Positions 3,222 to 37,211 of a stretch of DNA of 39,001 nt are shown here, piece after piece; positions within the stretch are counted from its first letter, which is position 1, and the number at the start of each line of letters is the position of its first letter. This stretch comes from a virus. Taxonomy: Duplodnaviria > Caudoviricetes. A program made the position numbers and the translations under genes. Below the pieces are notes generated by a model. The model saw nothing but the letters and a program-made list of their open reading frames with translations, did not search any database and had not been told where the DNA came from. The DNA is taken from the IMG/VR virus record IMGVR_UViG_3300004210_000005, positions 1 through 39,001 of that record. One strand, written 5' to 3'.

Positions 3222-5093
3222 ATGTTAAATAATCGTATTCAAGATTTGGTTGTTAAGATTAACCAAGCAAGGCTTGACTATTATAACGGTCAACCAACAG
3301 TGTCAGATAAAGTATATGATGCTTGGTGTGATGAACTACGACTATTAGATCCTAACAATACCGCTGTAACAGCGGTTGGCGCTCCGGTCGCATCTGCTTG
3401 GCTTAAAGCTAAGCATCAAATTCCTATGGGCTCTTTGAATAAGGTGAATACTCCAACCGAGTTTTCTAAGTGGACAAATGATGTTGCTGATAAAGAAACA
3501 CTTTTTGTCACACAGAAACTAGATGGTCTTTCTATTGAGCTGATTTATGAAAACGGAACGCTAATTCAAGCAATCACCCGTGGTGATGGTGATGTTGGCG
3601 AGGATATTACGATAAATGTTAGGAAGATGGATGGTGTTAAGTCTCAACTTCCAACTACATTCAACGGCTCGCTTCGTGGCGAGATTATCATGTTGAAGTC
3701 AAAACATCGGAAGCATTTCTCGGACAAAGCTAATCCTCGCAATGCTGCATCGGGCGTTTCTAAGAGGCTTGATGGTGTTGGAGTTGAGCATCTATCTATT
3801 ATTTTCTATCAAGCATTGGGCGATGTGGATTTCAAGACTGAAGTTGAACAATTCGAATGGCTAAAGGCTCAAGGCATTATTATTCCGGATTATTGGATAT
3901 TTAAGAATGCTAGTGAAGTTAATCTACACTGGAGAAATTATCAAGACACTGATCGAGATAAACTAGATTACGATATTGATGGTTTAGTAATTCATATCAA
4001 TGATATGGCTAAACAAATGTCTTTAGGTGATAAAGATATGCGTCCATTAGGAGCTATCGCATTCAAGTTCGATAATGAGACTCGCGAATCTATTATTCGT
4101 GATATTATCTGGCAAGTTGGCAATAGTGGTCGTTTGACTCCTGTTGCAGTAGTTGATCCGGTATCATTGGTTGGTGCGACAGTCACTAGAGCCAGCATCT
4201 ATAATATGTCTTATATTGAAGAGCTAAGTCTTGATATTGGTGCAACAGTGTTGGTTGCACGAGCAAATGATGTGATTCCGCGAATTGAAGAATTGGTCAA
4301 GGGAACTGGCAAGGTAGCTATTCCTCCGACACACTGTCCATCTTGTGGTGGTATTGTTGTAATGATTGGTGAAAATCTTACATGCACGAACTCTGCCACT
4401 TGTCCTGCGCAAGTGATTGGTCGTATCAAGAATTGGGTTAGCGATTTGAATATCCTTGAGTGGGGCGATACCTTAATTGAAAAGTTAGTTGAAGCCAAGA
4501 AAGTAACGACTGTTGCTGATTTGTATACATTAACAGTTGCCGATTTAGCCGGAATTGATAGAATGGGGCAAAAGTCTGCGCAGAAATGTTATGATAGTCT
4601 GTGGAAGAATAGTGAGGTGACTTTAGACGTTTTCATTGGCGCACTAAGCATTCCTATGATTGGTTCAACAACTATTCGTCAGATCATGAATGCTGGTTGT
4701 GATACATTAGAAAAATTTGGGCAGCTCGGTGCTGCACAATTTGAGATGGTTCCCGGTGTTGGTCCGTCTAAAGCAGATTCTCTTGCTAATGGACTTTTGC
4801 AGAATCAAAAAGTTATTCTCGCACTACTTGATAATGGCGTTAAGATTAAAGCTAAAGTTGTTGGTAAGATGAGCGGATCATCCGTTTGTTTTACTGGTTC
4901 TATGAAGAATAAGAGACCAGTACTAGAAAAGATGGCGTCTGATGCTGGTGCTGATGTTAAGTCTTCTGTTGGAAAAGGCTTGACTTATCTTGTGATTGCA
5001 GATCCTAATAGTACAAGTTCTAAGGCAGTTGCAGCAAGAAAAATGGGGACAGTGCTTATTTCTGAGGATGAGTTCTTAGATAAGGTTCAATAA
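3222..5093 (+). CDS. ligA: NAD-dependent DNA ligase
   Basis: KLDG adenylation motif, TRGDG..GEDIT, RGE, NPRNAASG, DGLV, Zn finger, HhH repeats, C-terminal BRCT. Confidence 0.96.
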   Translation: MLNNRIQDLVVKINQARLDYYNGQPTVSDKVYDAWCDELRLLDPNNTAVTAVGAPVASAWLKAKHQIPMGSLNKVNTPTEFSKWTNDVADKETLFVTQKLDGLSIELIYENGTLIQAITRGDGDVGEDITINVRKMDGVKSQLPTTFNGSLRGEIIMLKSKHRKHFSDKANPRNAASGVSKRLDGVGVEHLSIIFYQALGDVDFKTEVEQFEWLKAQGIIIPDYWIFKNASEVNLHWRNYQDTDRDKLDYDIDGLVIHINDMAKQMSLGDKDMRPLGAIAFKFDNETRESIIRDIIWQVGNSGRLTPVAVVDPVSLVGATVTRASIYNMSYIEELSLDIGATVLVARANDVIPRIEELVKGTGKVAIPPTHCPSCGGIVVMIGENLTCTNSATCPAQVIGRIKNWVSDLNILEWGDTLIEKLVEAKKVTTVADLYTLTVADLAGIDRMGQKSAQKCYDSLWKNSEVTLDVFIGALSIPMIGSTTIRQIMNAGCDTLEKFGQLGAAQFEMVPGVGPSKADSLANGLLQNQKVILALLDNGVKIKAKVVGKMSGSSVCFTGSMKNKRPVLEKMASDAGADVKSSVGKGLTYLVIADPNSTSSKAVAARKMGTVLISEDEFLDKVQ

Positions 5094-8994: not shown

Positions 8995-10485
8995 ATGGGA
9001 AAAACAGCTTTGAAAGAGAGCGAAGTTTCGGTTGTTGTAAAGGATGTTCTTAAGAGATACACTCTTAATTTTACTGACATCATCAATAACAATAACAAAT
9101 ATTACAATCTGGAGATTCAAGAATCTAAAGATGGTAAGTTTTACCTATACACTCAGTATGGGCGCGTTGGCGGAACTGCTGCTAAAGAATATCGTATTTG
9201 CTCTGGGCAGGCTGACGCAGAATCTGAAGCGCAAAAGATTATCAAATCAAAATTGAAGAAGGGCTACGTTGAAGTTAAATTAGTTCAAGCGACTGTTGGT
9301 TCTGATGTAGCACGATCAAAAATTGAAACTTCTCAAGTATCTGTTGAAGATCTGAAAAAAATTGGCGTTAAGGTTGCCGAAGATGCCGCACTTAGTAAGT
9401 TGCACCCGCAAGTTAGCGATTTGATTCGTACTTGGTTCGGTGTTACCGCCGAATTCGTTGAAATGAATCTTGATACAAAGAAGTGTCCTCTTGGTCAATT
9501 ATCTGCTGACTCTATCATCAAAGGTCGTGATATCCTTGAAGAAGCAAGAAAGATCATTCACGCCAGTAAAAAGGACGTGGCAGAATTAAATAGATTGACA
9601 AATCTATACTATTCCAACATTCCTCACAATTTTGGATATACAAGAATTAATGCCGATGTTTTGCGCCTGGATGATGACTTTAAGATTGATAAGGCATTTG
9701 ATATTCTTGATGTCTTTTCTAACGCAAAAGACGTTGAAAAGGTTATTTCTAAGAAGAGCAATGTTGATTCTCAGTATGATACTTTGCATGCCGATCTTCA
9801 ATTCATTGATCCGTCTGAGCCAACTTGGAAGTGGATTGATGCTATGTTGAATAAAACAAAAGCACATAATCATCATTTCTTGGGCAATTTAAAGACTCAT
9901 AAGATTTTTAAAGTTGCTCGTCACAATGAAGAAAAGAACATGCTTGCTGCGGCAGAAGATATTGCGAGAGCGTGTGGCAAGTCGCAACCTTCACAAGCAT
10001 ATGCGTCTCTAGTAAAAGAACGCCCTGATGTTCCAAAGGAGTTGCGCAATCTATATGAAAAAGCAAATATCCTTCCAGGCTGGCACGGAACTCGTAGAGC
10101 GAACATGATCGGTATTACAACCAAGGGTCTTTTGATTCGTCCTTCTGGTGTTGTTCATGCTGGTTCGATGTATGGTGACGGTATTTATTGGGCAACTCAA
10201 TCCACTAAGTCTATCAACTATTGCGATGTTAAGGGCTCTTATTGGGCTCAAGGGACCAATAAGACTGCGTACCTATTCTTGGCAGATGTTGCTTATGGCA
10301 ATTACAAAATGGCAAACGGAGCACACTTCTATTCTAAGAAATCTATTTCTCCTAGTCATAGTGTATTTGCACAGGGCGGAAAATCTGGAGTTATTAATGA
10401 CGAGATTATTACATATACTCCTTCTGGTCCCGGTCAACAACACTGTTTGCGTTACATCATTGAATTCGAAACACAAGTTAGATAA
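8995..10485 (+). CDS. poly(ADP-ribose) polymerase: WGR + regulatory + catalytic domains
   Basis: NNNKYY..QYGRVG (WGR), PLGQLS and YYSNIPH (helical domain), WHGT / GSMYGDGIYWA / NDEIITY (H-Y-E triad). Confidence 0.92.
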   Translation: MGKTALKESEVSVVVKDVLKRYTLNFTDIINNNNKYYNLEIQESKDGKFYLYTQYGRVGGTAAKEYRICSGQADAESEAQKIIKSKLKKGYVEVKLVQATVGSDVARSKIETSQVSVEDLKKIGVKVAEDAALSKLHPQVSDLIRTWFGVTAEFVEMNLDTKKCPLGQLSADSIIKGRDILEEARKIIHASKKDVAELNRLTNLYYSNIPHNFGYTRINADVLRLDDDFKIDKAFDILDVFSNAKDVEKVISKKSNVDSQYDTLHADLQFIDPSEPTWKWIDAMLNKTKAHNHHFLGNLKTHKIFKVARHNEEKNMLAAAEDIARACGKSQPSQAYASLVKERPDVPKELRNLYEKANILPGWHGTRRANMIGITTKGLLIRPSGVVHAGSMYGDGIYWATQSTKSINYCDVKGSYWAQGTNKTAYLFLADVAYGNYKMANGAHFYSKKSISPSHSVFAQGGKSGVINDEIITYTPSGPGQQHCLRYIIEFETQVR

Positions 10486-12224: not shown

Positions 12225-12656
12225 ATGACTATAAAATTTTACAAAACAAAAGACCCTTATGGGTATATGAGTAATTTCTATAGATCAAGAATGTTTATTG
12301 GTGGTAAATGGTGGAATACAATTGAGCACTATTATCAGGCAATGAAAACTGATTTTGCTGATGAACGAGAAATGGTTCGTACTGCCAAGACTCCTCGTAT
12401 AGCTAGAGATATTGGTCAAACGGTAACTATGCGTAAGAATTTTGATGATGATAAATATCTAATCATGAAGGCTGCCGTTTTAGCTAAGTTTTTACAACAC
12501 CCAGAACTTAGAGAGCAATTGCTTTCTACTAATGATGAAGTGCTGATTGAAGACTCTCCAGTAGATTATTATTGGGGATGTGGTGCCGATGGTTCTGGCA
12601 AGAATATGTTGGGCAAGGTGTTGATGGAAATTAGGTCGGAGTTTCGTCATGACTGA
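12225..12656 (+). CDS. NADAR family protein (YbiA-like)
   Basis: MSNFY, EHYYQAMK, KFLQH, LIEDSP.DYYWG, GKNMLGKVLM motifs. Confidence 0.92.
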   Translation: MTIKFYKTKDPYGYMSNFYRSRMFIGGKWWNTIEHYYQAMKTDFADEREMVRTAKTPRIARDIGQTVTMRKNFDDDKYLIMKAAVLAKFLQHPELREQLLSTNDEVLIEDSPVDYYWGCGADGSGKNMLGKVLMEIRSEFRHD

Positions 12657-19913: not shown

Positions 19914-21041
19914 ATGGCTCAGACTCAACAACAAGTAATGGTTACCTCTGACTTCAATTTGCAAAAATTGAGTACAAAAGATTTGTCAGAGCATATTTCT
20001 GCTGCAATTCAAGTTGGCAGTAATATCGCAGTATTTGGGCGCAGAGGAACCGGCAAAACAGAAATAGCTAAGTATCAAATTAAAAAATCTGGTTTGAAGG
20101 AAGTTTATCTAAATCTTTCTGTTTTAGAAAGAGTGGATATGGGTGGTTATCCAAATATTATGGGAGCTAACCTACAACGCAAATTCGTTGAGTTTTTGCT
20201 TCCTCAATTTTACGAAGAGATGGTAGATGGTAAAGAAGGTGTTGTTGCCTTATTGGATGAGGTGGATAAAGCAGATACAAGCCTTTGGGCTCCTCTATTA
20301 GAGTTTACTCAGTTTCACTCTATTAATGGTCGCCCCTTACCACAATTAAAGGCAATCATCATGACAGGTAACTTAATTTCAGAAGGTGGGGCTAGACCTA
20401 GCCTTCCTCTTCTGGATAGATCTGAAAAGTATCTAGTTGAAGCAGACGCATCTTCTTGGCTAGAATGGGCTGGTAAGATGGGTCATATTCACCCATCTAT
20501 CACCGCTTATATCACAGACCATCCAAAAGATTTGTTTGGAAATGTAGACCCAGATGATAGATACGCCGATCCTTCTCCTAGAGGTTGGGACCGAGCTTCG
20601 CAATTACTATATAAAGGAGAAGCCCATGGTTGGAGTACCAGCCTCTTAAATAGTAAGGTATCTGGTTGTGTAGGTAAAGATGCTGGACTCAAGTATTCTA
20701 ATTATTACGAGCACTATCAGCAACTACTGCCTATGATTGAAGACCTGTATCAAGGCAAGAATATAATTGATAGATATGAGCCATTGGAACCAACCAAAAA
20801 ATTAGTTGCTTGTATGATTACATGTGCAAGACTAGCGGCACAACTGGATCAGTCCGAAGGCGGTGAGTTACCTCCTTCAGTCCATTATGTTGGCAAATTC
20901 TTACAACAAGTATCTTACGAAAATGTTTTAGTCGCTGTTCGTAGCCAAATTCAGATTTTACGTTTGGTTAAGTTCAGTCTAGATGAGCATCCAGAGTGGG
21001 AAGCCGTTTTAAATAGAATCAATAGGCAAGTTGAGGACTAA
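19914..21041 (+). CDS. MoxR-like AAA+ ATPase (copy 1)
   Basis: GRRGTGKT Walker A, LLDEVDK Walker B, TGN, PLLDR, PSPRGW. Confidence 0.88.
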   Translation: MAQTQQQVMVTSDFNLQKLSTKDLSEHISAAIQVGSNIAVFGRRGTGKTEIAKYQIKKSGLKEVYLNLSVLERVDMGGYPNIMGANLQRKFVEFLLPQFYEEMVDGKEGVVALLDEVDKADTSLWAPLLEFTQFHSINGRPLPQLKAIIMTGNLISEGGARPSLPLLDRSEKYLVEADASSWLEWAGKMGHIHPSITAYITDHPKDLFGNVDPDDRYADPSPRGWDRASQLLYKGEAHGWSTSLLNSKVSGCVGKDAGLKYSNYYEHYQQLLPMIEDLYQGKNIIDRYEPLEPTKKLVACMITCARLAAQLDQSEGGELPPSVHYVGKFLQQVSYENVLVAVRSQIQILRLVKFSLDEHPEWEAVLNRINRQVED

Positions 21042-21082
21042 ACCTATCATCGTAACATGGTATATAACTATTTGGGGTTAAT

Positions 21083-22669
21083 ATGAAATTTTCCAGAGTG
21101 ATAGGTAAAGTTGACGATAAGCTGGTTGCCAAGGCTGAAGATAAATTATCTAAGGTATTTCTTGAGCTAGGCACAAGATATAATAATGAACATATTGGTA
21201 CTGGAATGGGTGGTGATCCATTAATCTTTGGACTAATGTATCCAATAGATCACATTTGTACTTTGAATATGCCAACAGCGGCGACAGATGGTAAAAGATA
21301 CTTCTGGAATCCTAAGTTTGTTGTCAAGACAAGTACTCGTGGTTTGCGCATTATCTGTAGCCACGAAGCTTGGCATGCGATCTATATGCACCCTCAAAGA
21401 AGAGGGTCGCGTATTCCTAAATTATGGAATATTGCGGTTGATTATATTGTCAATGGTACTTGTATGGAAGACTTAAAAGCTCGTAAACTTAATCCACATG
21501 ATGTCTTTACAAAAGAAGTTGGAAGATATATGTGCCTTAAAGATTATATGGAGCTTTTAAAAGATCCATTCCATCCACCTAAAGGGTGGGAAGATTTAAA
21601 GTTTGGTCAAGATAATGATCCTCATATTAGTCTTCCGAAGCCCGGCGAAGATAGAGATCTAACCCCTCAAGAACAAAAAGAGCTTGAGAGGAGAGAGAAG
21701 GGCGTAAGATTTTACTACGCCGATCCTAATCTTGATGAAGAATTAAAACGCCCAGAAAAAATCTATGATATGCTATATAAACTCCTACCCAAATGCCCTA
21801 AGTGCGGAAGTGTAGGGCTTTATAAGCCGCCAAGTAAGGGCGGCAATAAATCAAAAGGAGATGGTAATAGCCCAGGAAAAGATAATGGAGATAAGGGAGA
21901 TCCTGGACAATGCCCCGGCTGTGGAGGGGAAAAAGGAACATGCCCTAATTGTGGTGGGGGCTATGATATTTTTGGATTCGGAGCAACACTTGATGACCAT
22001 ATAGATGCGGAAGAAAGTGAAGAAAAGCTTGCTAAAAGAATCTCTGATGCCATGGAAGCGGCTAAGAAAATGGCTGGTCATATTCCTGGCTCTCTCGAAG
22101 ATGAATTGGGCAAACTTACTGCTCCTAAAGTTACATGGCAAGATATTATTCGTACCCGCCTTATTAAGGCTAGATCAGGTAATGGCAGAAATGATTGGAC
22201 CAGATTCAGAACGCGCCCAATGTTTGCGGGACTTTTAGTTCCTAAAAGAAGAAATTATTTTGCTCATTTCGGATGCCTACTTGATACTAGCGGATCCATG
22301 AGCGCAGAGGATATGGCATTTGGTTTATCACAACTGTGCGCCTTGGATGAAAAAGCAGAGGGAACGATTGTTCCAGCAGATGCTAAGATATACTGGGATA
22401 AGGCAGTTAAGATTAAAAAAGCTAATGCTGAAGAGATCACAAAAGTTAGACCTTACGGAAGAGGCGGGACCAAGTTTGCCGATTTCTTTAACGATTATGA
22501 AGAGAATATAGGTCATTGTGATTTTCTTATTGTAATCACAGATGGGTTTTTATTGGATTCTGATTTTGTAGAAATGAAAAATCCAGGTAAGGATGTCATC
22601 TGGCTAATTACCAGTGGAAGCGTTTTTAATCCTCCATTTGGTAGGGCATTTGATTTAAGAAGTTCATGA
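21083..22669 (+). CDS. DUF2201-like metallopeptidase + VWA domain protein
   Basis: TAATDG, HEAWH (HExxH), WNIAVD, CxxC inserts, LDTSGSM (MIDAS), GRGGT, ITDG. Confidence 0.85.
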   Translation: MKFSRVIGKVDDKLVAKAEDKLSKVFLELGTRYNNEHIGTGMGGDPLIFGLMYPIDHICTLNMPTAATDGKRYFWNPKFVVKTSTRGLRIICSHEAWHAIYMHPQRRGSRIPKLWNIAVDYIVNGTCMEDLKARKLNPHDVFTKEVGRYMCLKDYMELLKDPFHPPKGWEDLKFGQDNDPHISLPKPGEDRDLTPQEQKELERREKGVRFYYADPNLDEELKRPEKIYDMLYKLLPKCPKCGSVGLYKPPSKGGNKSKGDGNSPGKDNGDKGDPGQCPGCGGEKGTCPNCGGGYDIFGFGATLDDHIDAEESEEKLAKRISDAMEAAKKMAGHIPGSLEDELGKLTAPKVTWQDIIRTRLIKARSGNGRNDWTRFRTRPMFAGLLVPKRRNYFAHFGCLLDTSGSMSAEDMAFGLSQLCALDEKAEGTIVPADAKIYWDKAVKIKKANAEEITKVRPYGRGGTKFADFFNDYEENIGHCDFLIVITDGFLLDSDFVEMKNPGKDVIWLITSGSVFNPPFGRAFDLRSS

Positions 22670-32410: not shown

Positions 32411-33520
32411 ATGACAAATGCATTAAATCTGCCAGAGATAGACCAAGAACAAGCCTTTAATCTAAGCAAATTTTTTATCAAGTCACAAAAGAACTTATTT
32501 CTTTTTGGACGACGTGGCGTAGGTAAAACGGAGATTGTTCTACAAGCAGCAAAGGAATGTAATATTAAAGTTAATTACATCAACCTTAGTGTTATTGAGC
32601 GTCCTGATTTGGCTGGCTATCCAGATATCAATGCACCAGGAGATATGGTAACGTTTAAGTCTCCTTTTTTTCTACCTAAACTAAGTGACGGCGAAGATGC
32701 GGATAGTATTATTCTGTTTGATGAAGTAGATAAGGCGCCGTGTGAAGTTACCGCTCCACTATTAGAAATTTTGCAATTTAAAAAGATTAATGGTAAAAAG
32801 ATTAATGTAATATCTTGCATTCTTACTGGCAACTTAATTAATGAGGGAGCGAATTCTAATCTGGTTAGCTCTGCATTATTAGATCGTGGAGCTAAATACA
32901 TTTTATCTTTTAATTTTGAAAAGTGGGTAGATTGGGCAAAGACGCACAATGTACACGATTTAATCTTGGGATTTTTAAGAAGCAATCCAGAGTTTGCTTG
33001 TGGCAAAACTGAAGATATAACTTACGCTAACCCGTCACCTCGTGGATGGACATTAGCTTCTGATGCATTAATACAAGCTAAAGAATTAAAGATAATTGAT
33101 ATTGATTCTGTAGCACAAATTATTTCAGGATTTGTTGGAAGTGAGGCTGGATTAAGATTCAAAATTTGGTATGAGCATTATAGAAAATTTGAGCCATTTG
33201 TTTATTCATTGATTGAAAGTGGATCTATGAATCTAAACTACCATGAACTGACTCCAACAGAGAAGGTGGTGTTTGTGGTAACGGCTTGTTATTTTGCAAA
33301 ACAAAAGGTGTTTCAAGATCCTAAATCTAAAAACAGATTTGTTTCTTTGGAACACTTATGCAACTTCTTGCTATCTAACAATGTAGATCATGAAGTGCAA
33401 GTAATGGGTCTATATAATTCGTTTGATTTCGAAATGATCGCCCAGAATAGACTCTATGAATGTAAACCATTCTTTGAGCTATTTCAAAAATTAAACGAAA
33501 ATATCACGCTAAAAAAATAG
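32411..33520 (+). CDS. MoxR-like AAA+ ATPase (copy 2, paralog of 19914..21041)
   Basis: GRRGVGKT, NLSVIERPDLAGYP, LFDEVDK, TGN, LLDR, PSPRGW. Confidence 0.88.
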   Translation: MTNALNLPEIDQEQAFNLSKFFIKSQKNLFLFGRRGVGKTEIVLQAAKECNIKVNYINLSVIERPDLAGYPDINAPGDMVTFKSPFFLPKLSDGEDADSIILFDEVDKAPCEVTAPLLEILQFKKINGKKINVISCILTGNLINEGANSNLVSSALLDRGAKYILSFNFEKWVDWAKTHNVHDLILGFLRSNPEFACGKTEDITYANPSPRGWTLASDALIQAKELKIIDIDSVAQIISGFVGSEAGLRFKIWYEHYRKFEPFVYSLIESGSMNLNYHELTPTEKVVFVVTACYFAKQKVFQDPKSKNRFVSLEHLCNFLLSNNVDHEVQVMGLYNSFDFEMIAQNRLYECKPFFELFQKLNENITLKK

Positions 33521-33529
33521 CTGCCACCC

Positions 33530-33557
33530 TTGACTTTAATTTTTTAAGATACACATT
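33530..33557 (+). promoter_or_regulatory. promoter-like repeat upstream of thioredoxin
   Basis: TTGACT-N16-CACATT; near-identical to 23251-23280. Confidence 0.6.
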
Positions 33558-33574
33558 GTGTTATGAGGAGAGCT

Positions 33575-33904
33575 ATGAGTACAGTTTTACATGTTAATGA
33601 TAGTGATTTTGAATCTGAAGTAATAAATTCTGATAAGCCAGTTCTAGTTGATTTTAGTGCTTCATGGTGTGGACCATGCCAACGATTAGCTCCCATCCTA
33701 GAACAGTTTGCGGTTCGAAATGACAAACTAGTTAAAGTTTGTAAACTTGATATAGACGAATCTTCGCAAACAGCATCACGATATGCAATCAGAAGCGTAC
33801 CAACAGTTATGTTGTTTGTTAATGGAAAACGAGCGGATACAAAGGTTGGGTTAGCTTCATTAGCTATGCTAGAATCAATGCTGACATCCGCACTTAGTAA
33901 GTAA
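33575..33904 (+). CDS. trxA: thioredoxin
   Basis: WCGPC active site; ATG 33575 after GAGGAG. Confidence 0.93.
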   Translation: MSTVLHVNDSDFESEVINSDKPVLVDFSASWCGPCQRLAPILEQFAVRNDKLVKVCKLDIDESSQTASRYAIRSVPTVMLFVNGKRADTKVGLASLAMLESMLTSALSK

Positions 33905-33915
33905 GGTAAATTAAA

Positions 33916-33975
33916 ATGTCAATAGTTATGGGCTATCCAGCCTCTGTCTATCAATATTTATTTATATTAGCATGA
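33916..33975 (+). pseudogene. orphaned original N-terminus of the downstream polynucleotide kinase
   Basis: TAAGGT SD + MSIVMGYPAS(VYQYLFILA*), a Walker A cut off before GKS; stop overlaps the endonuclease ATG. Confidence 0.7.
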
Positions 33976-34781
33976 GCGAGTATAAAAGGAACTGTCCTAA
34001 ATGTAATAAAGAAATTCTTTATAAGCATAAGTGTAGTTTTACTGTTGCCTTAAAAAAGGATTCTGTTTGTAGATCTTGTATGCAAAGTGGTAAGAATAAT
34101 CACTTTTTTAATAAGAAACACACAGTTGAATCAAGACAAAAAATGAGTAGATTTCAATCTATAGATAGACAATTTACTAATGAGCAAAAAGAACAGGCAA
34201 AACAACAATTATTAAAAGTTACAAATAATCGTCCATTATATGATATTTGGTTAGAAAAATATGGTGAAAATATTGCTAACCAAAAGTTAAATGATTTTAA
34301 ATACAAACTTTCAAAAAGAAATTCTGGTGAAGGAAATCCTATGTTTGGTAAACCATCACCACAAGGTAGTGGAAATGGTTGGTCAGGATGGTATAATGGA
34401 TGGTTTTTTAGATCTATTCGAGAACTATCTTATATGATATTGATAATAGAGAAGAATAATTTAAGCTGGGCAGTTCCAAATAAAACATTCAGGATATCAT
34501 ATTTAGATCATACGGGAAAGAAAAGAACTTATCTTCCAGATTTTATAATAAATGGCAATAAAATTATAGAAATAAAACCAACTAAGTTACACAATTCACC
34601 AAAAATTATTGCAAAAAGCAATGCTGCCAAGAGATTTTGTAGAGATAGGTCATTTAGTTATGAAATTGTGGATCCAGAAGTATTGACTTATGATCAGATA
34701 TTAAAGTTATATTTTGAAAATAAAATAAAATTTCTACCAAAATATGATAAAAAGTTTAGAGAAAGATATTTAAATGAGTAA
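33972..34781 (+). mobile_element. free-standing homing-type endonuclease (Zn ribbon, NUMOD3-like motifs, TnsA-like PD-(D/E)xK domain)
   Basis: CPKC..CRSC, GKNNHFFNKKHT..SRQKMS, GEGNPMFGK, FRS..E, YLPDF..IEIKP. Confidence 0.8.
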
Positions 34782-35712
34782 AGTTATATTAGTATGTGGC
34801 GCGCCCGCATCTGGTAAAAGCACTATCACAAGAAATTTGGTACAAGAACAAGGATTCATCTCTCTTAATAGAGATACAGAAGGCGGCACAATTGTTTCAT
34901 TACTTCCTAAAATGGAAGCTTTATTGAAAGATAATAAAGATGTAGTTCTGGATAACCTATTTCCCACTGTTGAAGTTCGAAAACCATTTCTTGAAATGGC
35001 TAAAAAGCATGGAGCAACCATTAACTGTGTATTAATGGGAACATCTATTGAAGATGCTGCTTTTAATGTTATTCAAAGGGCTTTTGGAATTATTGGCAAG
35101 TTTCCGTCTCCAGAGGCAATAAAAGAGGCGAAACATACAAATGTTTTCCCGCCCCTGGTACTATTCAAGTATAAAAAGGAATTTCAAAAACCAACACTTG
35201 CTGAAGGTTTTTCCAAAATTGATACGATTCCATTTGTTCGCAAGGATGATCCTACGTTTACCAATAAGGCTGTCATTGTAGATTATGATGGCACACTTCG
35301 TGAATGTATTGGAGGAAATGGAAAGTACCCTGTAACAAAAGATCAGATTAAGCTAATGCCTGGTCGTAAAGCTGTGCTGCAATCCTATAAGGATAAGGGA
35401 TACCTTTTACTTGGAGCTTCTAATCAAAGCGGCATAGCTAAAGATGAGTTATCTAATGAAACTGCTATTGAATTATTTAAACATACAAATAAACTATTAG
35501 GCATTGATATAGAATATAAATTCTGTCCACATAGGTCTGCTCCATTATCTTGTTATTGTAGAAAACCCATGCAGGGCATGTTTATTGATTTTATGCTTAA
35601 ATACAAACTAAATAGAAAAGAATCAATTTTTGTAGGTGATATGACAACAGATCGTACGGCAGCAACAAGATTTGGTTGCACATATATAGACCAAGCCGAA
35701 TTCTTTAAATGA
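34774..35712 (+). CDS. polynucleotide kinase + HAD-IIIA phosphatase (PNKP-like)
   Basis: GAPASGKST, NRD, LDN; DYDGTL, SNQSG, CRKP, FVGD. Confidence 0.85.
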   Translation: MSKVILVCGAPASGKSTITRNLVQEQGFISLNRDTEGGTIVSLLPKMEALLKDNKDVVLDNLFPTVEVRKPFLEMAKKHGATINCVLMGTSIEDAAFNVIQRAFGIIGKFPSPEAIKEAKHTNVFPPLVLFKYKKEFQKPTLAEGFSKIDTIPFVRKDDPTFTNKAVIVDYDGTLRECIGGNGKYPVTKDQIKLMPGRKAVLQSYKDKGYLLLGASNQSGIAKDELSNETAIELFKHTNKLLGIDIEYKFCPHRSAPLSCYCRKPMQGMFIDFMLKYKLNRKESIFVGDMTTDRTAATRFGCTYIDQAEFFK

Positions 35713-35755
35713 TCATTAAATGCATTATCAAAATTGAAGATTTGGAGAAAGTATT

Positions 35756-36142
35756 ATGTTGGATGAAAAAGATGATGCGTTGACTGATAAAGAAAAAAAC
35801 TATATTCAGTCAATGGAAAAAGAGCTTAAGCACATTTGTGATAATGATAGTGATACTGATGGAGAGGCATACGCAATGTTTCGTTTGCAAGACAAAATCA
35901 GCAATCTTAAATCATATGCACAAGATAGAAAAGTTCTCCAAGATAGGAATATTTCATTTACTCCAATATCTGGAGGATTTATTATACAGTCACCTACAAT
36001 GGCATATCGTAGATATTATTACTATGTCAATTCTTGTAAGTGGAGACAAGAAGGTAAATCTAAATACTATTTATGCAAAGACATAAATGATTTATTAGAT
36101 AGATTCATTCTAAATACTATTTTTAAAGGCAAAAAACGGTAG
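35756..36142 (+). CDS. hypothetical protein
   Basis: GGAG SD; 128 aa. Confidence 0.65.
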   Translation: MLDEKDDALTDKEKNYIQSMEKELKHICDNDSDTDGEAYAMFRLQDKISNLKSYAQDRKVLQDRNISFTPISGGFIIQSPTMAYRRYYYYVNSCKWRQEGKSKYYLCKDINDLLDRFILNTIFKGKKR

Positions 36143-36249
36143 GTTTTATATATGAAATGGTTGATCCTGTTATCTTAAGTGATGAATATATTACATTTAT
36201 ATATCCAAAATATTATGAAAAATTTAGAAAGAAGTATTTAAGATGTTGA
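36142..36249 (+). pseudogene. C-terminal remnant of an endonuclease related to 33972..34781
   Basis: frame reads GFIYEMVDPVILSDEYITFIYPKYYEKFRKKYLRC* vs SFSYEIVDPEVLTYDQILKLYFENKIKFLPKYDKKFRERYLNE*. Confidence 0.7.
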
Positions 36250-37211
36250 AAGTCATTTTATGCGTAGGTATAGTAGCATCAGGAAAGTCTACTTGGGCAA
36301 AAGAAGAAATCAAAAGAGATCCTAGTATCATTAGGGTTAACAGAGATGATCTGCGAGTTATGATGTCTAATTATGTTTACTCGCCAGAGAATGAGAAGCT
36401 AATCATTGCGGCTCGTAATCAAATCATTTCTAATGCTTTAAAGAGCGGAAGAAATGTCATCATTGATGATACTAACTTAAATCGCCGTAACTTTGAAGAT
36501 GTCTGTGCTTTGGTTAATAGCCTTGGCGTAGAATGTATGGTTATGGAGAAAGCATTCTATGTCGATCTGGATGAGGCAATTGCCCGCAATGCTAAGCGCG
36601 AAGGATTTGCTTTAATTCCTGAAGATGTTATACGTAAAATGTGGAAGCAATCTGGTGGAACACAACATAAGTTTTATAAAGGTAGAGTTGAGGTTTGCAG
36701 AGGAAATACTCTAGAATTTGATTCTGGAGAGCCCGCATCTACTGATATGAGTAAGCCTTTTGCTATTTTGTGCGATTTAGACGGAACTATTTCGCTTTTT
36801 AACCCCATTCGCAAGAATGGATCTGTTGAAAAGCGTCATGTTGGTGCGCCAGCCAGAAGCCCTTATGATGCATCTAAAGCAAATAATGATATGGTTAATG
36901 AGCCAGTTGCAGAAGTGTTAGAGAGAATGTCTGCTGCCGGATATCAAATCATATTCTGCTCTGGACGCGAAGATCGATACAGGGACCAGACCGTAGAATT
37001 TCTTAAGAAAAATGTTGGGTTTCCATATGAATTAATTATGAGAACAACTGGCGACTCTAGGAAAGACTCTATTGTCAAAGAAGAACTATATCAAAAATAT
37101 GTAGCAGAGAAATACAATGTATTTTTAGTGCTTGATGATCGTAATCAAGTAGTTGACTTCTGGCGTTCAAAAGGATTTGCCTGTTGGCAAGTTAACCCCG
37201 GAGATTTCTAA
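36243..37211 (+). CDS. pseT: T4 PseT-like polynucleotide 5'-kinase/3'-phosphatase
   Basis: GIVASGKSTWA, VNRDDLR, IDDTNL; DLDGT, SGR, RKDSIVK, LDDRNQVV. Confidence 0.9.
   Translation: MLKVILCVGIVASGKSTWAKEEIKRDPSIIRVNRDDLRVMMSNYVYSPENEKLIIAARNQIISNALKSGRNVIIDDTNLNRRNFEDVCALVNSLGVECMVMEKAFYVDLDEAIARNAKREGFALIPEDVIRKMWKQSGGTQHKFYKGRVEVCRGNTLEFDSGEPASTDMSKPFAILCDLDGTISLFNPIRKNGSVEKRHVGAPARSPYDASKANNDMVNEPVAEVLERMSAAGYQIIFCSGREDRYRDQTVEFLKKNVGFPYELIMRTTGDSRKDSIVKEELYQKYVAEKYNVFLVLDDRNQVVDFWRSKGFACWQVNPGDF

Follow-up and report, generated by a model that had tools for sequence, protein, structure and literature searches.

A probable homing endonuclease gene that replaces the 5' end of a phage kinase gene at its Walker A codons

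Why should a complete kinase gene stand directly behind a nuclease gene which is itself preceded by what looks like another start of the same kinase? This question is raised by a locus in the window, by which we mean the whole analysed stretch of viral DNA (39,001 nucleotides), a single 39-kb contig that alone represents the genome of its phage. A first-pass annotation, made from the letters only, had proposed that a splicing-free mobile element entered the Walker A codons of the kinase gene, brought a recoded, cleavage-immune 5' end and borrowed the ribosome binding site of its host gene. We consider it quite probable, judging from the sequence, that the nuclease gene, placed between the stub of the old start and a differently spelled new start, is a homing element which replaces the 5' end of the host gene without splicing. 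Some parts of the earlier proposal needed revision, and some related kinase genes carry, within their Walker A codons, a short stop-led insert that ribosomes likely hop over.

Layout of the locus and its nuclease

The genes around the kinase, those of a large phage, are densely packed on the same strand, and orthologues of the kinase sit on viral contigs of up to 480 kb. The local order is AAA gene, thioredoxin, stub, nuclease, AAA_33-PNK3P kinase-phosphatase and T4-type PNK (Table 1). The reading frame of the stub, which opens MSIVMGYPASVYQYLFILA at ATG 33916, ends in a TGA (33973-33975) overlapping the nuclease ATG (33972-33974), and the nuclease, with its stop TAA at 34779-34781, overlaps the kinase ATG (34774-34776). 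When base 33946 (G) is joined to 34814-34815 (GT), the second Gly codon of Walker A is rebuilt in frame. These features, together with the SD ahead of the stub, had been described in the first-pass annotation and were confirmed.

Table 1. Features of the locus and of its surroundings in the window
Feature	Position	Strand	Basis or remark
Thioredoxin gene, host neighbour upstream of the element	33563..33904	+	Pfam PF00085, E 1.7e-28; 67% identical to the L009 copy
SD-like AAGGT, 8 bases ahead of the stub ATG	33903..33907	+	Sequence; putative function
Stub: former 5' end of the kinase, closing with the first base of the second Walker A Gly codon	33916..33946	+	Likely left homology arm in homing (putative role)
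Element leader with the CTATYAATA motif and without SD; the stub frame runs through it to TGA 33973-33975	33947..33971	+	
Nuclease, 269 aa: CxxC pairs, NUMOD3 motif, C-terminal TnsA-like PD-(D/E)xK domain (PDF...EIK)	33972..34781	+	
Replacement 5' end of the kinase, start codon within the last nuclease codons; moves with the nuclease	34774..34829	+	Comparison with L009
Polynucleotide kinase/3'-phosphatase-like gene (AAA_33 and PNK3P/HAD), whole, one frame	34774..35712	+	Pfam PF13671, E 4.1e-13; PF08645, E 2.3e-7
Second polynucleotide kinase gene, T4-type, element-free in the window	36243..37211	+	Pfam PF25109, PF13671
Repair-type genes by appearance	638-1390, 3222-5093, 8995-10485, 12225-12656, 34774-37211		Labels by appearance; kinases Pfam-scanned

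The stub can be recognised as a former kinase start. It scores 41 against an 11-residue start motif of element-free orthologues, a value reached by none of 3000 shuffles and by none of 424 other 91-base tiles of the window, the best of which scores 25. Against the window's own new start (8 residues) the similarity falls short of significance (p 0.14), since old and new start differ. It is less certain that the start reconstructed in the first-pass annotation is the ancestral one: the in-frame rejoining holds, but the kinase probably once began further upstream. In the related locus L009 the stub is longer, and an Ile codon stands opposite the stub ATG of the window, behind a 6-base gap that removes the L009 ATG; the window's stub ATG is therefore probably a secondary start. 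Only 5 residues precede the first Gly in the window's stub, compared with at least 7 in the element-free loci examined for this.

The element measures 867 bases and holds one ORF. Its product matches Pfam PF07460 (E 2.5e-13) and PF08722 (E 1.3e-8), and residues D190, E200 and K202 are invariant in 17 homologues. Foldseek found no match at E<=0.001, its best one being Tn7 TnsA (E 0.014, prob 0.99), and a PDB sequence search gave weak matches to T7 endonuclease I only (E 0.009). A nuclease domain and DNA-binding modules, outside any intron or intein, are what is expected of a free-standing homing endonuclease; the stub ends in a stop and the nuclease lies in another frame, which is not the arrangement of an intein. 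The nuclease had no match among 50,697 GenBank phage records and only 2 loci in the genome_contigs set.

Elsewhere in the window there are two related AAA genes (19914-22669 and 32411-33520), which we take to be MoxR-like from their motifs, the Pfam scan having covered the second one (32411-33520). After the first comes a 528-aa gene with an HExxH motif and a presumably vWA-like end. The AAA gene that precedes thioredoxin is roughly doubled in length in L007 (1124-3352) and L013 (1172-3328), with an insertion of intein-like appearance right after its Walker A. By appearance, we also take the window to hold a repair-type gene cluster: Thg1-like, NAD-dependent ligase-like, PARP-like and NADAR-like genes and the two polynucleotide kinases.

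Transfer of the element and origin of the new start

L009 carries the same element (94% protein identity) at the same junction base with a different stub, whose stop lies 17 bases ahead of the nuclease ATG. Between the window and L009, identity is 80% in the AAA gene, 67% in thioredoxin and 95% in the nuclease; along the kinase it is 51/56 (91%) in the first 56 bases and 132/171 (77%) in the next 171. The nuclease genes differ by a dN of 0.026 and a dS of 0.18, and the comparison points to a nuclease still under selection. dS amounts to 1.64 in the AAA gene, 1.40 in thioredoxin, 1.03 in kinase codons 19-312 and 2.9 in the second kinase, and to 0.42 in kinase codons 1-18, a value resting on 18 codons. 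As the dS of the nuclease is 0.18 against 1.0-2.9 in these four flanking genes or gene parts, the comparison points to a recent lateral move of the nuclease together with the new start. Contigs of four DNA runs over 33300-35900, which show presence only, contained no joint of 33946 to 34814; a variant in run X4 has the differences of L009 and is not counted as a third lineage.

The element is also patchily distributed, since only one of 41 orthologue loci of the kinase, L231 (= L009), has the nuclease directly upstream. The first-pass annotation expected element-free relatives in which thioredoxin is followed directly by the kinase, and L011 and L012 have exactly this arrangement. The replacement of the 5' end that it proposed is likewise upheld, as the ILVCGAP of the new start occurs in none of the 37 other orthologue loci with a readable start. 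In the 37 element-free orthologues, the residue after the first Gly is Tyr in 15, Phe in 17 and Ala in 2, and the stub resembles the Tyr/Phe group. These orthologues come from other phages, no element-free allele of this very phage having been found. Among proteins taken alone, without gene context, P0121 (84% identical) starts MNKIIMVMGYPASGKST, and Ala follows the first Gly in 14 of 120 homologues.

Where does the new start come from? It scores 29.5 for the same kinase family and 19.9 for the second PNK family, so that an origin from the latter is not supported, and it may therefore be the start of an ordinary allele rather than a specially recoded one. In the window, 10 of 15 P-loop bases agree between stub and new start, and with 5 of 15 differing an immunity of the new start to cutting is plausible. 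In L094 and L179, on the other hand, the five P-loop codons of the stub match those of the new start at all 15 bases, so recoding of the P-loop is not always the source of immunity. Together with the Ala found in 2 of 37 element-free orthologues, these loci weaken the suggestion that the recoded P-loop confers immunity. As a separate observation, there is a small GC hairpin around GGCGCGCC in the new P-loop codons (window 34792-34810). It is perfect in L009, and GCG-CCN recurs in the sister elements L008 and L015.

Relatives of the nuclease and the proposed way of moving

Family scans of viral and metagenome contigs, two of which kept the best 80 of 165 and the best 80 of 317, gave at least 182 nuclease ORFs in at least 128 clusters below 97% identity. 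By automatic classes, 101 of the 128 distinct nucleases listed stand at a Walker A: 47 directly upstream of an intact Walker A gene and 7 divergent from one, 16 ahead of a kinase whose Walker A is interrupted and 17 divergent from such a kinase, and 14 between the halves of an AAA gene split at Walker A. The other 27 were classed differently, although by eye four of them (L054, L031, L209, L200) do stand at one. Targets of the elements include AAA_33, AAA_28, thymidylate kinase and T4-type PNK genes. A cognate stub was detected at p<=0.05 in 21 of 45 intact-kinase loci and in 10 of 13 interrupted ones with enough upstream DNA. In 31 hand-picked pairs of stub and start, the similarity reaches no further than the second Gly, or stops shortly ahead of it, and 30 of the stubs lack the Lys codon of Walker A.

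The clade of the window's nuclease (8 rows, SH-aLRT 95 in a quick IQ-TREE run) holds elements in at least three kinase genes, and the nearest sisters occupy orthologues of the window's second, T4-type PNK gene (L007, L015, L132, L162). The leader motif CTATYAATA stands at the left junction in all 7 members with upstream DNA, 6 of which have a recognisable stub ending at the same base. The overlap that is conserved is the downstream one, between nuclease stop and new kinase start (51 of 63). Its upstream counterpart is found in the window only (1 of the 31 hand-picked pairs; 6 more stubs stop no more than 20 bases from the ATG), and in L008 and L015 the nuclease has an SD of its own. The view of the first-pass annotation thus stands as regards a mobile, splicing-free element that has its place in Walker A codons and supplies a new 5' end, but borrowing of the host ribosome binding site is not general.

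Several other arrangements were seen. In L076 (1437-4394), L031, L085, L101, L107, L128, L160, L175, L180, L185, L187, L190, L194, L197, L199 and L209, an AAA gene is broken in Walker A and the nuclease lies between its two pieces; GxPG is followed by Cys in the first, and TGKT is preceded by His-Asn in the second. Fourteen relatives of this kind appear to lie within split inteins; Pfam gave AAA for the halves and no intein match at 1e-5, so the reading relies on these residues. An intact Walker A gene, either helicase-like or a kinase, is divergent from the nuclease in L103, L201, L100, L172, L161, L150, L205 and L200, with a significant stub in L103 only. In L020, L022, L023, L025, L026 and 12 more loci, the nuclease and a stub-like piece are oriented away from the interrupted kinase, as though turned round; the stub scores of these 17 loci (12 significant) were not used, as an antisense hairpin arm or an AT-rich motif may inflate them. 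No Walker A adjoins the nuclease in L098, L102, L110, L116, L122, L123, L063, L079, L152 and L202, where it lies between what we take to be the end of a recA-like gene and a 5'-3' exonuclease-like gene.

How might such an element move? In a mixed infection, the nuclease would cut an element-free allele at or near its Walker A codons. The broken left end would recombine with the donor stub, having perhaps been joined to the leader by microhomology the first time, and the broken right end with the part of the kinase gene that immediately follows the new start. In the recipient, the original start would survive as a stub, and the resident kinase body would now follow the donor start, which would escape cutting by the nuclease. 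Homing by double-strand-break repair with co-conversion is established, according to the accessible text of PMC2988022. Because the new start lies inside the last nuclease codons, kinase synthesis likely depends on translation of the nuclease, which would shield the element from decay. The window nuclease lacks an SD and is thus probably translated by re-initiation after the stub, a local solution. As new starts resemble their cognate targets, entry into a new gene family would demand that the start be remade from that family. The simplest origin would be a nuclease upstream of an intact allele plus a one-sided illegitimate join.

This last idea can also be taken as an explanation of the whole locus: an ordinary free-standing homing endonuclease upstream of an intact allele, the stub being the scar of a single illegitimate repair with no later role in homing, and the new start being native to the donor. 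We regard this as possible but doubtful. The new starts do resemble the cognate target family in L132, L118, L193, L208 and in the window, stubs are often decayed or frameshifted (L007, L008, L015, L054), and 24 of 45 intact-kinase loci have no significant stub. Against this, 6 of 7 clade members, in different kinase genes, have their junction at one and the same Walker A base and share the leader motif, and the last 19 stub bases are identical at 17 of 19 positions between the window and L009, compared with 67% for thioredoxin, as if they had been co-converted. Such a scar probably describes the first origin of the element, which is compatible with homing.

Two further explanations fit the locus less well. 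Direct insertion of a transposon-like element at Walker A codons by the TnsA-like protein, with duplication of the target, would agree with the fold, with the precise junction in different kinase genes and with the inverted stub and nuclease in 17 loci, yet we consider it quite improbable. Tn7 TnsA alone cuts DNA and is not known to join it. The single-ORF element has no transposase partner (TnsB or TnsC), the sharing of only 10 of 15 P-loop bases in the window means that there is no target-site duplication, and the highly identical tract tapers off after about 55 bases of the kinase, as expected of co-conversion. A self-splicing intron, whose removal would join stub and kinase body in RNA and make the second start incidental, appears the least credible of all, to the point of being very improbable. 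The join is in frame, and homing endonucleases at conserved motifs are often intron-borne (PMC2988022, accessible text), but there is no Rfam intron match at E<=1 in 33000-36500. Moreover, the 25 bases from the junction to the nuclease ATG are all the non-coding DNA of the element, with none on the right side, leaving no room for a ribozyme core, and it is the new start that is conserved together with the nuclease while stubs decay in relatives.

Interrupted Walker A loops and comparison with known systems

A search across all loci collected for any insert of 0-12 bases between the GxP and GxGK codons returned 26 intact and 39 interrupted loops, and 33 of the 128 listed nuclease loci are among the latter. 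Examples in AAA_33-type kinases are L018 (4910-4935), L019 (4926-4953) and L020 (3845-3904, minus strand), followed by L022, L023, L025, L055, L062, L088, L113 and 29 more. The inserts measure 5 bases in 8 cases, 6 in 25, and 7, 8 and 9 in 2 each, and all 39 open with TAA, TAG or TGA right after the Pro codon, within an essential motif. They form 17 types with three stop codons and five lengths; the last triplet is a Pro codon in 8 types, one with possible G-U pairing to a Pro anticodon in 7, and ACA in 2. In a quick IQ-TREE run, the interrupted cases fall on one broad branch of the tree; they share ancestry and are therefore not 39 independent events. The kinase of the window has no stop-led insert in its Walker A.

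A hairpin of -19 to about -29 kcal/mol ends at the take-off codon in 39 of 39 interrupted loops, and none of the 26 intact ones reaches -19. Each of these hairpins is stronger than all 60 of its synonymous recodings, the median z being -6.0. The Arg-Gly codons read SD-like AGRGGG in 27 of 30 distinct hairpins, compared with GGG in 0 of 10 cognate stubs; hairpin and AGRGGG may thus have a stimulatory role in hopping. RNAalifold on the 30 ungapped hairpins gave only 4 pairs, because the hairpin registers differ, and the compensatory changes, counted on each sequence's own fold, are for that reason biased in favour of structure.

The kinase bodies are complete in 33 of 38 cases (116-287 aa), with 5 running off the locus. 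They stay under purifying selection, every one of 42 body pairs having a lower pN than pS (for L114-L117, dN 0.03 and dS 0.86), so a reading as pseudogenes was rejected. Readthrough of the stop is also ruled out, as 12 of 39 inserts shift the frame and the others would add 2-3 residues to Walker A. No start codon follows the insert, and an Rfam check of 6 loci, including 4 with an interrupted loop, showed no intron. Most simply, peptidyl-tRNA-Pro is likely to hop over the stop. When all viral contigs were scanned for the pattern without regard to the nuclease, 21 loci came up, 16 of which have the nuclease within 2 kb; 20 are kinases, the remaining one is a chance match, and several of the contigs are near-copies. 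Interrupted kinases with the hairpin and without an adjacent nuclease (L043, L213, L215, L226, L228) were found as well; the insert seems to persist after loss of the nuclease, or to spread without it.

Taking the relatives together, we lean, with some reserve, towards one widespread family of TnsA-like homing endonucleases from uncultured large phages, specialised on Walker A, which would survive in three forms: as a replaced start, as in the window; as a split intein; or as a replaced start with a stop-led insert of 5-9 bases, hopped from a Pro codon with the help of an internal SD and of a hairpin zipping up behind the ribosome.

For comparison with known systems we relied on the accessible parts of the papers cited. 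End-replacing homing elements are described as a rare third category, known from the nuclei of yeasts and the mitochondria of fungi, where they replace 3' ends. WHO elements of Torulaspora and Lachancea home and are neither intron nor intein (Coughlan et al. 2020, PMC7282813; bioRxiv 10.64898/2026.08.13.744650). As in the window, they keep the host gene whole by swapping one end for a variant, the displaced end staying as a fragment; at the DNA level, the window likewise has an endonuclease, a variant gene end and an old end left as a fragment, with no splicing. Resistance to self-cleavage has been shown for WHO elements, whereas cleavage by the window nuclease is putative. They also differ in that they are LAGLIDADG proteins with a zinc finger, act in the yeast nucleus on the 3' half of one gene (FBA1) and build clusters. 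The window element, NUMOD3 and TnsA-like by Pfam and aimed at the 5' end of a phage kinase gene, does not belong to the WHO family proper: it replaces about 13-18 codons, with the start codon inside the nuclease gene, and its family sits at the Walker A of several gene families. The mORF hybrids of fungal mitochondria, in atp6 of Allomyces macrogynus and in atp6, atp9, cox2 and nad3 of Glomus (PMC3630166; PMC4019555), similarly join an endonuclease ORF and a foreign copy of one gene end in frame, displacing the native end; there the replacement is C-terminal, the enzyme LAGLIDADG or GIY-YIG and the genome that of an organelle, whereas the window shows an N-terminal and motif-directed one. By analogy, the window element likely homes like WHO elements and mORFs, mirrored to the 5' end.

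Fractured genes, with a free-standing endonuclease within split inteins (Dassa et al. 2009, PMC2677866), resemble the locus in that the 3' end of the nuclease gene overlaps and supplies the start of the downstream piece, and T4 mobE shares a stop-start overlap with its upstream ORF (PMC2988022). In fractured genes and T4 free-standing endonucleases, however, the host protein is in two pieces or the nuclease is intergenic, while the window encodes one whole protein from a replaced start. The words 'TnsA' and 'Walker' are absent from PMC2677866, and the accessible part of PMC10448857 holds nothing on end replacement. The literature, as covered by titles and abstracts and mostly without subscription papers, gave no 5'-replacing or Walker A-directed phage endonuclease and no such short hops. 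The window element would thus be a phage version acting on 5' ends and moving between unrelated genes through a shared catalytic motif. Chimeric kinase starts made by such elements escape gene callers, and a testable target can now be named for a nuclease family without a cultured-phage member in the collection of 50,697 records.

For the interrupted relatives, the closest likeness is MobA with the T4 gene 60 bypass cassette (Manning and Atkins, bioRxiv 10.1101/2022.08.31.505936), whose insert protects from self-nicking and outlives the nuclease. Both have a free-standing nuclease beside a gene with a stop-led insert after the take-off codon and with a 5' RNA structure. In gene 60 there are a 50-base gap, Gly codons, a topoisomerase and an HNH nuclease, compared with 5-9 bases, a Pro codon and Walker A in the relatives, where hopping is a candidate. 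An SD 5' of a short gap has been proposed for a Streptomyces phage, and the accessible text of a 2016 review reports no natural in-frame stop hop (PMC5009743). The interrupted loops offer a natural allelic series for how a hairpin behind the ribosome and an internal SD drive bypassing. If the reading is true, dozens of short programmed hops would exist as one natural family, and no smaller counterpart of the T4 gene 60 cassette would be known.
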